Positions 57,654-63,537 of a DNA stretch of 64,000 nt are shown piece after piece; the first letter of the stretch is position 1; each line of letters begins with the position of its first letter. Position numbers and translations under genes: made by a program. The notes below the pieces were generated by a model. That model searched no databases and was not told the DNA's origin. It saw only the letters and a list, made by a program, of their open reading frames with translations. The stretch comes from an uncultured Planctomycetia bacterium (GTDB lineage Bacteria > Omnitrophota > Gorgyraeia > VGKH01 > JBHPFN01): contig CAYOSQ010000003.1 in NCBI GenBank assembly GCA_964406665.1, forward strand, positions 102,641 to 166,640, read 5' to 3'.

Positions 57654-58256
57654 TTAAAGCTGATCTATTATGTATAGAGCAGCATCATTAGAGATATTTC
57701 CCACAACTGCACAATTGCTGTTTGTAACCGAAGAGTCACCAACTCCGTTAGAACCAACAATTGCTCCAATGTTGCTCTGTGCTGCAACCGCTGATTTAGA
57801 TAATCCTAAATCATTGATTGAACCACCATCTTCGCCAACTTCAATACCTACTGTTTCTACGTCAGCATAACCTTCGCCCCATTTTTCATAGACGTTGATT
57901 ACGAGAGCTCCATTGTTATTTTCAACTGAAGAGCTTGTTACATCGCCACCTAAAGAAGCGATTGCTCCAATATTGCTCTGTGCTGCTGCAGCGGAATTTC
58001 CATCGATATTTGCTACGAGTGCCATGTTGTTGTTAATAACTTCAGTAGACCAGATGGGTCCTCCAGCAGCAATCGCACCTATATTGCTTTGAGTAACTAT
58101 TGCTGAGTTACCAGCGTCGACATCGTTAAGATTGACGTCAATAGCTCCTGCAGTAATTCCAGCGAGTTCAGCATCTGTCATTACTGTTTCTGCAAATACA
58201 GGTACGCACAGCGCTACTACAACCAATGCGAGTAATAATGATTTCATGTATTTCAC
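57654..58256 (-). CDS. secreted three-repeat N/Q/S/G/A-rich protein, candidate amyloid nucleator-like subunit
   Basis: Signal peptide, then three ~37 aa imperfect repeats (GNSAIVTQSNIGAIAAGG..., GNSAAAAQSNIGAIASLGG..., SKSAVAAQSNIGAIVGSNG...), each followed by V.N.N.A.V.NI. Confidence 0.55.
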   Translation of the reverse strand: MKYMKSLLLALVVVALCVPVFAETVMTDAELAGITAGAIDVNLNDVDAGNSAIVTQSNIGAIAAGGPIWSTEVINNNMALVANIDGNSAAAAQSNIGAIASLGGDVTSSSVENNNGALVINVYEKWGEGYADVETVGIEVGEDGGSINDLGLSKSAVAAQSNIGAIVGSNGVGDSSVTNSNCAVVGNISNDAALYIIDQL

Positions 58257-60614: not shown

Positions 60615-61103
60615 GTGAAAAAAATTAAATTATTTGCAAAGACAGTATTAGTAATAAATTTAGTAAATTTTTTCTGTACTTTTTCGTTTAGAATAAATAG
60701 TTTTGTGAGACAGTTTACAAGGTGGGTAGAAATGGGCCATAGTAATTATTTAGGTAAAGATCAATCTTTCTTCGGTCTCATTATCCAAGAGTTTCTTATG
60801 TATGCTCTTTGCGTACTTCCATTTATCATTATTATATTTCTTGTATCCGTAGCTACAATCAAGAATTTGGAGCGCTTCAGAGGTGTTAAAAAAGGAATTC
60901 TGCTAGGTTCTCTTATTGGTGGGGGATTTTCTTCTGTAATAATCGCCTTGTCTACAATCCCGCGCTTTTTTCATATAATGCATGATGGAACAGCCGAGTG
61001 GATGTTTTCATTGTTGACCGTATTTTGGCTTGGATATCCTTCAATTATCATAGGAATCGGCCTAGGTGCGTTGGTAGCTATAATAAGGAAAGATAAGACT
61101 TAG
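60615..61103 (+). CDS. hypothetical membrane protein
   Basis: Four TM helices. Confidence 0.4.
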   Translation: MKKIKLFAKTVLVINLVNFFCTFSFRINSFVRQFTRWVEMGHSNYLGKDQSFFGLIIQEFLMYALCVLPFIIIIFLVSVATIKNLERFRGVKKGILLGSLIGGGFSSVIIALSTIPRFFHIMHDGTAEWMFSLLTVFWLGYPSIIIGIGLGALVAIIRKDKT

Positions 61104-61169
61104 CCCGCTGAAAGGCTTGCGAAAAAAACAATATGTTTCTAAGTAGTGCTGAGAGAATCGAAGTGCGGG

Positions 61170-61195
61170 CTAGCACCGAGAGTAACGAGGTGTAC
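61170..61195 (+). repeat. GC-rich hairpin repeat, copy 1 (CTAGCACCGAG-N6-CGAGGTGT)
   Basis: A second, directly oriented copy lies at 61964-61990; the two flank the pcm gene. Confidence 0.5.
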
Positions 61196-61230
61196 GCAAG
61201 AAATTAATTAGAGAGGCATAGAATCTTAAA

Positions 61231-61956
61231 ATGAAAATTTTAGGTTTGGCAGTTGGTTTATTAATTTTGGTTTGTGGTTGTGCTGATTCAAACGCAACCA
61301 AACATAGGTTCTCTTCAGATGAACCGATATTTTCTCGGGCTAGAAAAAACATGGTCGATACTCAGATAAAATCCCGCGAGGTTAAGGACAGACGGGTAAT
61401 TCGGGCAATGCTTAAGGTGAAAAGGCATATTTTTGTTCCGGCGCGTATTAGGAATTTTTCTTATGCTGATCGGCCGTTGCCCATTGGTGAAGACCAGACG
61501 ATTTCTCAACCCTATATTGTTGCTCTTATGAGCGAACTATTAAATTTAGAAGGCGATGAGAAAGTTTTAGAGATTGGAACCGGCTCTGGCTATCAAGCAG
61601 CTATATTAGGTGAATTGGCAGATGAAGTTTATACAATTGAGATTTTAGAGCCTTTAGCCATTCGAGCAGAAAGTACTTTAGAGTATTTAGGGTATAAAAA
61701 TATCACGGTTAAATTCGGTGATGGATATCTTGGCTGGCCAGAGCACGCACCTTTTGATGCGATTATTGTTACCTGTGCACCGCCAGAAATCCCCCAGCCT
61801 TTGATTGATCAGCTAGCCGAAGGTGGTAGAATGGTTATACCAGTTGGGGTACGCTGGCAGGAATTGAAGGTATTGGAAAAAGTTGATGGCCAGATAAAGA
61901 CTAGTAGCAGCATCCCAGTCAGATTTGTTCCTATGATAAAAAGCTTAGACCGTTGA
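61231..61956 (+). CDS. pcm: protein-L-isoaspartate O-methyltransferase, lipoprotein-type N-terminus
   Basis: VLEIGTGSGYQAAIL SAM-binding motif and PCMT conserved regions (QTISQPYIVA, PVGV); N-terminal LVCGCA lipobox. Confidence 0.85.
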   Translation: MKILGLAVGLLILVCGCADSNATKHRFSSDEPIFSRARKNMVDTQIKSREVKDRRVIRAMLKVKRHIFVPARIRNFSYADRPLPIGEDQTISQPYIVALMSELLNLEGDEKVLEIGTGSGYQAAILGELADEVYTIEILEPLAIRAESTLEYLGYKNITVKFGDGYLGWPEHAPFDAIIVTCAPPEIPQPLIDQLAEGGRMVIPVGVRWQELKVLEKVDGQIKTSSSIPVRFVPMIKSLDR

Positions 61957-61963
61957 AAACGGT

Positions 61964-61990
61964 CTAGCACCGAGCTTCAGCGAGGTGTGC
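61964..61990 (+). repeat. GC-rich hairpin repeat, copy 2
   Basis: CTAGCACCGAG-cttcag-CGAGGTGTGC, immediately after a GACCGTT-gaaa-ACGGTC hairpin that spans the pcm stop codon. Confidence 0.5.
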
Positions 61991-62055
61991 GGTTTGTGCC
62001 GATGGTTAGGGAAGATATTAAGAAGCAGTAGATTTTTCTATTTAGCATAACAAAT

Positions 62056-62095
62056 TTACACTACATTCCTGTGTTTATGCTATAATGTAGTGTAA
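62056..62095 (+). promoter_or_regulatory. promoter -10 (TATAAT at 62081-62086) embedded in an 11 bp perfect inverted repeat (operator-like)
   Basis: TTACACTACAT ... ATGTAGTGTAA; typical of an autoregulated small-operon promoter. Confidence 0.5.
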
Positions 62096-62110
62096 AAGGA
62101 ACATGCGGCC

Positions 62111-62413
62111 ATGAAAATATTAAAAGGAATCTTATCGGAAAGTAAAGAATACTACCTTAGATTAAAAAGGCAGATAGAAAGAAAGATTGCTGAACTTGCC
62201 AAAGGAAGTATTAAAGAAAGAAAAATCTCCGGTAGGAAGTATTACTATTTGCAAAGACGAGAAGGCAATAAGATTGTGCATAAATATCTGGGTAGATGCA
62301 AGCCCGAAGACCTTTCAAAGCAGATACGAAGAAGAAGAGAATTAAAAAATGAGCTAAAAAAAGTTAACGAAGCTTTAAAAATACTAAAGAGGTCTGAGGG
62401 AAGAAGGAAATGA
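62111..62413 (+). CDS. small basic protein (100 aa), partner of the downstream nucleotidyltransferase
   Basis: Highly basic and Lys/Arg-rich; ATGA overlap with the next gene; no recognised domain. Confidence 0.4.
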   Translation: MKILKGILSESKEYYLRLKRQIERKIAELAKGSIKERKISGRKYYYLQRREGNKIVHKYLGRCKPEDLSKQIRRRRELKNELKKVNEALKILKRSEGRRK

Positions 62414-63108
62414 TTAAAATTATTACGGACATTCTAAATGTCTTTGCTCAAAATAATCTTTTTGATGAGGGTGTTGAACTTATCGGAAGTTGGTGTTTTA
62501 AATTGTATCAAAAACATTTGGGAGCTAAGAATTTTCCTTTAAGAACTCAGGATATTGATTTTCTTATTCCCAGCCCTTATCTTGGAAGAGAGCATCCGGA
62601 TTTTGTGAATCAACTAGAGCAGCTAGGGTTCAATTACAATTTCAAGAGAGACGGATCGCTATATCTATGGAATGCGGAATTAAAAATAGAATTCATAACT
62701 CCAGAGAAGGGCTGTGGCGTGGATGGTTCTCTAAAAATCAAAAAGCTTGGACTAAATGCCATACCACTGCGATACGTCGGGTTATTGTTGGATAGCCCCA
62801 TTACTATTGTTGAAAATGGTATTAAGGTCAGACTTCCTAATCCTGCTCATTTTTGCCTACATAAGCTTATTATTGCCAGTCAGAGACGTAAAATTGATAA
62901 GAGTTTGAAAGATTTACAGCAAGCAATTTGTACTTCTGTAATTGTTAATAGCGAAGAAATTCAGAAAATATTTGAATCTTTACCGAAGAAGTGGCAAGGT
63001 GCTATTGTCCGGATGCTTGAAAAGGCTAAGGTGGCATTGCCGTTATTAATTGAAGATATAGAGAAGCTTGAACATACACTACAAAATGTCAAGAAAAAGA
63101 AGATGTAG
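62410..63108 (+). CDS. nucleotidyltransferase-fold protein (minimal NTase, possible toxin/defence-module component)
   Basis: IGSWCFKLY ... LRTQDIDFLI (the hG[GS] ... [DE]h[DE]h NTase motif) and a downstream acidic KIEF; C-terminal helical region. Confidence 0.5.
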   Translation: MIKIITDILNVFAQNNLFDEGVELIGSWCFKLYQKHLGAKNFPLRTQDIDFLIPSPYLGREHPDFVNQLEQLGFNYNFKRDGSLYLWNAELKIEFITPEKGCGVDGSLKIKKLGLNAIPLRYVGLLLDSPITIVENGIKVRLPNPAHFCLHKLIIASQRRKIDKSLKDLQQAICTSVIVNSEEIQKIFESLPKKWQGAIVRMLEKAKVALPLLIEDIEKLEHTLQNVKKKKM

Positions 63109-63112
63109 TGTA

Positions 63113-63166
63113 AAGATAAAGACCAGTACCAGCATCCCTGTTAGGTTTGTTCCTATGGTGCAAAAG
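63113..63166 (+). repeat. degenerate duplicate of the 3' end of pcm (roughly 85% identical to 61893-61948)
   Basis: Encodes ...TSTSIPVRFVPMVQK, compared with the pcm C-terminus ...SSSIPVRFVPMIKSL. Confidence 0.6.
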
Positions 63167-63174
63167 GAGTTAAA

Positions 63175-63537
63175 ATGAAAAAAATAATACTTGTTTTGGT
63201 TTGCTTGGGATTCGTTGGATGTGCGACGATTAGTTTTGCTCAAGATGCTGATGTTAAATTAATCACAAAAGATGATGCTATTCGTATTGCTAAAGAATTC
63301 TGGAGTAAACAAGGTTTAAAGATCTTGAGAATATCAGCACGTGAAGATAAAGGTGGATGGATGATTTATGCAGAAACCTTTATAGAAGAACAACCCAATA
63401 TTAAAGGTGAAATAATGGTAGGTGAGGTTATTTTGGCTCTAAGGCTTGACGAGAATGGAAATTGGATAAATGATGGACGCCAACTAAAAAAAAGTTTTAC
63501 TAATCGTGAATGGATGGTTTGGCAAGATGTGGAATAA
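63175..63537 (+). CDS. hypothetical lipoprotein
   Basis: Lipobox FVGCAT; no domain. Confidence 0.4.
   Translation: MKKIILVLVCLGFVGCATISFAQDADVKLITKDDAIRIAKEFWSKQGLKILRISAREDKGGWMIYAETFIEEQPNIKGEIMVGEVILALRLDENGNWINDGRQLKKSFTNREWMVWQDVE

Follow-up and report, generated by a model that had tools for sequence, protein, structure and literature searches.

The 64-kb stretch of contig CAYOSQ010000003.1 analysed here (the window, on whose numbering all cassette coordinates are given) contains a two-gene cassette of ~1,060 bp (62047–63112) situated between pcm, the gene for protein-L-isoaspartate O-methyltransferase, and a gene encoding a lipoprotein-like protein. The cassette encodes a 100-residue basic protein and a 232-residue nucleotidyltransferase (NTase) of the GSU2403 family, and is bracketed by two copies of one 38-bp palindromic site, designated the left (LE) and right (RE) sites. 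It is a discrete, conserved accessory unit that is not native to the pcm position, and it was probably acquired by recombination. On sequence comparison the gene pair is a split, probably autoregulated and DNA-binding, NTase. The members of its family are most aptly regarded as the union of a DNA-binding domain and an NTase, controlled by lineage-specific palindromic sites, and the window contains a split version.

The gene for the 100-residue protein (62111–62413) is preceded by a ribosome-binding site, and its stop codon shares the sequence ATGA with the start codon of the NTase gene (62410–63108), such that the two open reading frames (ORFs), both on the forward strand, are translationally coupled. 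An earlier note on this DNA, made from the letters without database searches, had described both products and their overlap, and both ORFs are present as it described them. LE (62047–62096, forward strand) consists of an AT-rich lead-in and a palindrome situated ~100 nt 3′ of pcm, and is presumed to be the promoter and operator of the pair. The palindrome is a perfect inverted repeat of 13 bp (TTTACACTACATT, 62055–62067; AATGTAGTGTAAA, 62084–62096) with a core of TACACTACA (62057–62065), a 20-nt spacer and TGTAGTGTA (62086–62094). The spacer contains the extended −10 motif TGcTATAAT (62078–62086, with TG at 62078–62079 and TATAAT at 62081–62086), and the final T of TATAAT is the first base of the right arm. 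The promoter claimed at this palindrome is upheld as to its TATAAT, but a generic sigma-70 promoter scan gave no call at LE because there is no good −35 motif; similarly, the repeat had been described as perfect, which it is, but as 11 bp long, and its second copy had been overlooked.

That second copy, RE (63075–63112, forward strand), is a full match to TACACTACA-N20-TGTAGTGTA and overlaps the end of the NTase gene. Its left arm is inside the coding sequence and encodes an invariant T-L-Q, the NTase stop codon TAG (63106–63108) is within its spacer, and its right arm is located 3′ of the stop. The cassette therefore has terminal inverted repeats, with TTACACTACA at its start and TGTAGTGTAA at its end. 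When up to three mismatches are permitted, the 38-bp pattern occurs twice in the window and not once in 100 shuffled sequences.

The same architecture is found in many other genomes. A scan with one genome per species identified 46 loci containing the gene pair (designated here by L numbers where they need to be told apart), mostly in metagenome-assembled genomes (MAGs) of the Omnitrophota, together with metagenome contigs; a few loci are labelled Planctomycetota, Armatimonadota, Elusimicrobiota or Gammaproteobacteria, and protein searches add several hundred homologues at ~60–78% identity. Both palindromes are at fixed positions relative to the NTase start (about −351/−322 and +665/+694) in ~40 of the 46 loci, and an LE site at about −350 is present in ~43. 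A site consensus and information profile were built from 33 loci. Protein identity falls to 60% (42–47% in outliers), yet the arms stay invariant; the few exceptions have one mismatched base for which the partner arm does not compensate. The LE spacer is 20 nt throughout and the RE spacer is mostly 20 nt (19–21 nt in a few loci), the sequence of the latter being free to vary despite its near-fixed length. Wherever RE is present the codons of its left arm (ACA CTA CAA, encoding T-L-Q) show no synonymous change, and at L063, where RE has been lost, the same residues are written ACG CTG CAA. Invariant arms, uncompensated variants and RE codons that are unchanged except where the site is lost together indicate that selection acts on the DNA sequence of the half-sites and not on hairpin pairing, and that coding constraint alone is insufficient to account for them. 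The suggestion that the palindrome is operator-like is supported.

An RNA hairpin was considered as the function of the palindromes and judged unlikely. The promoter lies inside LE, so that the cassette's own transcript cannot contain the full site; the arm changes are uncompensated; and the spacer length is fixed. The sites also have a restricted occurrence, being seen solely as the LE/RE pair of a single cassette, with no solo sites and no arrays in the 73 loci searched. The hallmarks of an integron gene cassette (an attC site, arrays and an integron integrase nearby) were not found. The palindrome pattern is present in 24 viral contigs, in all of them as a solitary and unrelated palindrome without the two genes, and a tblastn search of phage records gave no match. 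Two loci have peculiarities of their own. At L105 (944–976) the right site is a variant with a spacer of ~15 nt, not 20 nt, and a mismatched right arm (AGTAGTGTA). At L007 (5382–5470) a tandem pair of ~37-nt repeats (tatttttagggacggttctcaaaccgtgaggagaagt) is located upstream of the cassette and adjoins a 62-nt hairpin sequence, of which 95% identical copies flank the cassette left and right.

The NTase matches PF12281 (NTP_transf_8, the GSU2403 family) over residues 6–182 with a score of 87.5 bits (cut-off 26.3; E = 1.6e-24), and its homologues are named 'GSU2403 family nucleotidyltransferase fold protein' at NCBI; there are 466 close homologues in the protein collection (E ≤ 0.001). The GS...DxD motif reported in the earlier note is present as G26-S27 and D48-x-D50, which together with E94 are invariant in 16 homologues, such that the catalytic acidic residues are kept. 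All five residues are within the strand and helix core of an AlphaFold model with a predicted local distance difference test (pLDDT) score of 78. The best match of this model among solved structures in Foldseek is the toxin MenT1 (8an5_B, E = 1.5e-4, probability 1.0, template modelling score 0.44–0.54; 8an4, E = 5.5e-4), and LinB is also among the best structural matches. The NTase is thus predicted, on its motifs and modelled fold, to be a catalytically intact, MenT1/ANT-like enzyme. MenT toxins are nucleotidyltransferases that act on the 3′ ends of tRNAs (PMC7450476, PMC10435456). The NTase has no match to PF08843 (AbiEii/DUF1814) even at E ≤ 1, and neither cassette protein contains a transposase-like domain in Pfam.

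The 100-residue protein resembles DUF6788 (E = 0.005, below threshold) and has no match in NCBIfam or PADLOC; 329 homologues were found. The remark that the small partner is not a recognisable antitoxin thus stands. Its AlphaFold model (pLDDT 92) consists of a three-stranded sheet preceded and followed by a long helix. A profile made from 35 homologues was searched against 1.84 billion cluster representatives and matched 999 of them, mostly of ~100 residues. However, at least six, of 332–344 residues, have the small-protein domain at the N-terminus followed by PF12281, and these fused metagenomic forms match the profile at E values down to 1.5e-21. Two further proteins place a DUF6788-like domain in front of other sequences: in P0423 (223 residues) it precedes an HNH endonuclease, confirmed by Pfam, and in P0383 (211 residues) it is joined to a C-terminal region that appears by eye to be His-Me finger-like and has no Pfam match. 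The HNH fusions suggest that the DUF6788-like domain is a reusable nucleic-acid-targeting module.

A tblastn search identified distant relatives of the NTase on 274 plasmids, most of them from the Rhodobacterales or from Rhizobium and its relatives, with identities below 60% throughout and of 26–33% in the 15 listed. These family members are annotated as GSU2403 family and stand alone, for example beside repABC or ssb. The five plasmid genes examined are single genes of 339–362 codons whose products have an N-terminal extension of ~110 residues; the small-protein profile aligns by hhalign with residues 22–65 of the Rhodobacter pEJ01 protein at 36% identity (E = 3.8e-5). All five genes are immediately preceded by a palindrome of their own, and in three cases by two in tandem, 36–43 nt apart. 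These alignments show the small protein to be homologous to the N-terminal domain that single-chain GSU2403 proteins carry, here apparently detached, and the window is assigned to a split variant because it has a separate 100-residue ORF homologous to the fused domain. The fusions and the plasmid palindromes weaken a classical-antitoxin reading and strengthen one in which the palindromes are bound by the small protein, which also acts in physical association with the NTase.

A motif in the sheet of the small protein, GxKYYYLQxRxGxK..LG..PE, resembles the arm-binding domain of P4-type integrases and is noted as a lead only. The Foldseek comparisons with 3jtz and 3rmp were not significant (E about 0.5), and an hhalign comparison with an approximate consensus aligned the expected motif at E = 0.27.

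Cassette loci resemble one another from ~8–11 nt before LE as far as the final base of RE. L036 shares ~90% nucleotide identity with L044 and L050, which are in unrelated neighbourhoods, over exactly the LE–RE span. MAG JAZDMB01 contains two copies on different contigs with different flanks (L041, 3610–4678; L045, 3607–4678) that are 96% identical; their identity begins ~44 nt left of LE, and L045 ends inside RE such that the right boundary is not visible. In the window, the spacer between the pcm stop codon and the cassette (61957–62046) has no similarity to the corresponding stretch of other cassette loci. The view that a discrete unit was inserted beside pcm is borne out by this confinement of similarity to the LE–RE span. 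The base composition of the cassette is not distinguishable from that of its surroundings, and among 33 loci no flanking k-mer match above chance was found that would correspond to a target-site duplication.

The flanks of the cassette record how it may have entered. The pcm gene (61231–61956, forward strand) is intact (PF01135, E = 1e-63; NF001453, E = 2.4e-73), and its functional 3′ end (61892–61956, ~65 nt) reads QIKTSSSIPVRFVPMIKSLDR up to the stop. A second, diverged pcm 3′ end (63110–63178, forward strand), reading KIKTSTSIPVRFVPMVQKELK up to its stop, follows the cassette, with the outer edge of RE 1–2 nt from this remnant. The two ends are 84% identical over 51 nt (61892–61942 and 63114–63164), close to the ~85% over 54 nt originally noted, and both extend six codons beyond a shared VPM to a TGA stop; of the five codons that differ in the alignable part, four encode the same residue. 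The remnant TGA overlaps the ATG (63175) of the downstream host gene (63175–63537, forward strand), an ORF for a 120-residue lipoprotein-like protein whose ribosome-binding site falls within the pcm remnant. Because the fragment after RE is in frame, has its stop at the same position and differs mostly at synonymous sites, it is read as a second, once-functional pcm end from a diverged lineage and not as a chance match. An origin as a decayed insertion duplication was rejected, the differences being mainly synonymous with frame and stop kept. The functional pcm end probably came with the cassette and replaced the earlier one; comparison of the C-terminal tails of pcm homologues gave no indication as to which of the two is native.

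Similar repeats flank related cassettes. When scored at ≥20 in the 30 cassette loci with enough flanking sequence, the window included, flank repeats are present in 10, compared with none of 252 equal-length pseudo-elements placed in the same sequences, which agrees with the earlier proposal of an insertion or recombination footprint. At L035 and L058 the sequence that follows RE repeats the 3′ end of the upstream gene with mostly synonymous differences (and at L058 with the stop at the same position), and at L051 the 5′-terminal 263 nt of the downstream gene recur immediately before LE. In the ten loci one repeat copy is near a palindrome edge (0–36 nt away in all but L054, where the distance is 78 nt), and the other is mostly further away (18–254 nt overall) with unique sequence between. 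The truncated host gene abuts the outer edge of RE (the window and L035) or of LE (L051) within 0–11 nt. Direct repeats together with a restored target gene are seen in the window (61892–61956 and 63110–63178), L035, L058, L051 and L044.

These sharp edges could also mean that the cassette is a new small mobile element, in which the palindromes are recombination-active ends and the small protein doubles as an end-binder. Similarity between contexts that ends exactly at LE-8 and RE+0, truncated host genes within 0–11 nt of a site, two 96% identical copies in one MAG with different flanks, and fusion of the small domain to HNH nucleases are all in keeping with such an element. The palindromes may on this account be halves of a tandem operator that become adjacent in a circular intermediate, and RE joined to LE by circularisation would match the plasmid tandem operators 36–43 nt apart. 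However, there is no target-site duplication, no fetched flank contains a solo site, and neither protein resembles a known recombinase or transposase. A search for excised circles found that contigs of ~1.05 kb are arbitrary fragments with no end overlap, and no circular or permuted contigs were found. Furthermore, the functional unit itself simply extends from one outer palindrome edge to the other, and the flank repeats are homeologous gene ends and not duplications made by insertion. A self-mobile element is thus very improbable. A broader statement of the idea, that the LE–RE unit is an unrecognised type of mobile cassette whose own DNA-binding protein marks its ends, which recombines at the outer edges of the palindromes and spreads with short stretches of flanking genes, is improbable also.

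One lineage includes a recombinase. In L035, L042, L043, L044, L049 and L050 the cassette follows the same BNR-repeat gene. At L044 (3020–6240 of JADHYK010000057.1) a ~3-kb island contains a replacement 3′ end of the BNR gene, the cassette and a 542-residue large serine recombinase (PF00239 and PF07508), the last located between RE and what is left of a BNR gene end, a remnant of 67 codons that its own 3′ end overlaps. L049, L042 and L043 also contain the recombinase, with further cargo between RE and the recombinase gene, whereas L050 has recombinase fragments only and L035 has none, its RE abutting the remnant as in the window. The cargo of L042 (1422–4490) encodes proteins of 744 and 269 residues that appear by eye to be OtsA/OtsB-like (trehalose-6-phosphate synthase/phosphatase). 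By analogy with this series, the window may contain a decayed mini-island. It is equally possible that homologous recombination through the neighbouring gene inserted a donor fragment or a small circle.

The recombinase also invites the view that the cassette is a passive, non-autonomous element mobilised in trans, either by an integrase acting on the att-like repeats or by an IS200/IS605-type TnpA acting on the palindromes. The gradation from a recombinase island (L044, L049, L042 and L043) through fragments (L050) to none (L035) suggests progressive decay, direct repeats flank a third of the cassette loci with no recombinase nearby, and IS200/IS605 derivatives have a matching layout, with a palindrome at each end and no target-site duplication. 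Yet the recombinase is seen in one lineage only, and because the targets differ between loci (pcm, the BNR-repeat gene, other genes and intergenic hairpins) no single att specificity explains them. The arms lack the compensatory changes expected of a hairpin recognised by structure, and no transposase with the same ends was present in the fetched loci or viral contigs. Mobilisation in trans is accordingly regarded as doubtful.

The explanation that we favour, at even confidence, is that the window contains a split GSU2403/PF12281 accessory cassette that is autoregulated, acts as a MenT-like selfish module and was brought in with a diverged pcm end. The 100-residue protein, a detached N-terminal domain, would dimerise via its two long helices and recognise the half-sites TTACACTACA and TGTAGTGTAA with its three-stranded sheet. 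Binding at LE, which has the extended −10 in its spacer, would repress the cassette's own promoter, and the same protein would also bind RE over the NTase stop codon and form a complex with the NTase. The similarity of fold suggests that the NTase most likely adds nucleotides to an RNA 3′ end, as MenT does to tRNA, and an activity of this kind would make the cassette a toxin-antitoxin-like or abortive-infection-like selfish module. The cassette would have arrived with a diverged pcm 3′ end that now completes pcm, the original end being left as the remnant at RE, and the layout would be that of a small integrative island whose recombinase is gone, or of an insertion by homologous recombination with a donor fragment.

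Several observations weigh against this explanation. The aminoglycoside NTase ANT(2′′)-Ia, which acts on a small molecule, matches the NTase model nearly as well as MenT1. The NTase has no match to PF01909 or PF18765 (MNT), neither protein has a HEPN signature, and PADLOC-DB contains no family for either at E ≤ 1. The small protein has no significant neighbour among solved structures, either by Foldseek or by a profile search of structure sequences; the half-site centres are separated by 29 bp, an unusual spacing for a simple dimeric repressor; and the common single-chain form of the family speaks against a classical two-component toxin-antitoxin pair. A literature search on PF12281 or DUF6788 returned no study of either, the GSU2403 locus being mentioned once in a study of IHF in Geobacter. 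A tblastn search with the L044 recombinase found nothing in the window or beside most other cassettes. Finally, the comparison with related genomes that the earlier note proposed revealed no empty site: every near-identical contig carries the insertion, and in exact look-ups with the lipoprotein and pcm proteins all contigs contain the cassette or end within it. A scan of metagenomes for the lipoprotein was dominated by its signal-peptide word and yielded one irrelevant locus, and the nearest other pcm genes are at most 74% identical, the two that were checked (70% and 72%) not being syntenic.

The toxin-antitoxin reading is partly supported. The earlier note had likened the architecture to toxin-antitoxin or abortive-infection modules of the AbiEii or MNT families; the likeness persists in the MenT1 fold and in the arrangement of the genes, but membership of PF08843, PF01909 or PF18765 does not, the family being PF12281, and neither does the identity of an antitoxin. 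The NTase could instead be a non-toxic regulated modifying enzyme, for example an ANT(2′′)-Ia/LinB-like nucleotidyltransferase of antibiotics or small molecules, or a factor in plasmid or island establishment or in anti-defence, with the small protein serving as a transcriptional regulator only. The presence of ANT(2′′)-Ia and LinB among the best structural matches, the lack of a PADLOC match for either protein and the mostly single-chain form of the family, alone on its 274 plasmids, point in this direction. Such an enzyme is nevertheless unlikely, given that MenT1 is the top fold match, that physical fusion of the small domain to the NTase in many relatives exceeds a regulator-target link, and that the neighbours are often toxin-antitoxin or defence genes. 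At L033 (2023–3252 and 5226–5912) an AbiEii-family NTase and a helix-turn-helix (HTH) protein are encoded upstream of the cassette and an HNH endonuclease downstream, such that this cassette sits in a cluster of toxin-antitoxin or defence-type genes; at L050 the neighbour is an XRE-type HTH pair, HigB-like by eye only.

Two other features of the window were observed. A two-hairpin element is present in two copies (61100–61196 and 61946–61991) that flank pcm on both sides, the second being in the spacer that precedes the cassette; it consists of TAG(C/A)CCG...CGG(G/T)CTA followed by GCACCGAG-N5-6-CGAGGTGT, and each copy begins at or beside a gene's stop codon. The element could have a terminator-like nature in this genome or be akin to repetitive extragenic palindromic (REP) sequences. 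Further to the left, on the reverse strand, an ORF of 200 codons (57654–58256) has a signal-peptide-like start and a reiterated motif, AAQSNIGAI / NNN.ALV.N.

The closest relatives of the cassette are the single-chain GSU2403 proteins of repABC and conjugative plasmids of the Rhodobacterales and Rhizobiales, which belong to the same PF12281 family and have a homologous N-terminal domain and an upstream palindrome. Those proteins are single chains of ~340 residues with an N-terminal domain of ~100 residues, whereas the cassette encodes that domain in a separate, coupled gene. The cassette also has its second palindrome at the 3′ end of the unit and not in tandem upstream as in three of the five plasmid genes, and the half-site sequence of the window is specific to its lineage.

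In the MenAT/AbiE systems (DUF1814; MenT1–4 of M. tuberculosis and AbiEi/AbiEii) a small upstream gene likewise overlaps an NTase gene, the systems are likewise accessory with a patchy distribution, and MenT1 is the best solved fold match for the window NTase. AbiEi autoregulates via inverted repeats in its promoter. Unlike these systems, the window NTase has no PF08843/DUF1814 match, its partner is unrelated to the MenA or AbiEi antitoxins and is fused to the NTase in relatives of the cassette, and a second operator-like site is located at the cassette 3′ end. HEPN-MNT (type VII) systems likewise have a minimal Pol-beta-type NTase in a two-gene module, but there the NTase is the antitoxin, and the cassette has no HEPN partner, its neighbours being pcm and the lipoprotein gene.

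The arrangement of the flanks resembles that of integrative elements carrying a replacement end for their target gene, such as phage 21 and e14 in icd of E. coli. In these, likewise, an intact target is completed by a diverged end and the original end is an in-frame remnant, and at L044 a large serine recombinase is located between cassette and remnant as part of such an island. In contrast, the window has no recombinase, its island would be only ~1.2 kb, the targets vary between loci, and the remnant is 1–2 nt from a palindrome. The layout can also be compared with that of cis-mobilisable elements, which keep att repeats without an integrase. Terminal inverted repeats are shared with insertion sequences (IS), miniature inverted-repeat transposable elements and mobile insertion cassettes, but a target-site duplication and a transposase were not found in the cassette. 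IS200/IS605 derivatives have palindromes at both ends and no target-site duplication, as does the cassette, but its arm variants are uncompensated, its 'loop' measures ~20 nt, and neither the window nor the cassette flanks contain a TnpA.

The cassette belongs to a large family for which the literature search returned no study, and has an unusual bracketing pair of sites and an unusual record of recombination. PF12281 and the DUF6788-like domain are widespread, both in the Omnitrophota and on proteobacterial plasmids, and the cassette offers a compact system comprising a 100-residue protein, a 38-bp site present twice with invariant arms of 9–10 bp, and an NTase with a predicted MenT-like fold. 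The substrate of the NTase and a dual role of the detached domain, as repressor of the promoter and as restraint on the enzyme, would if established give the whole family a function. The diverged ends of the flanking genes, seen at a third of the cassettes, are an unusually clean record of the movement of a small module between uncultivated genomes, and the flank repeats could reveal a recombination route that operates without an element-encoded integrase.

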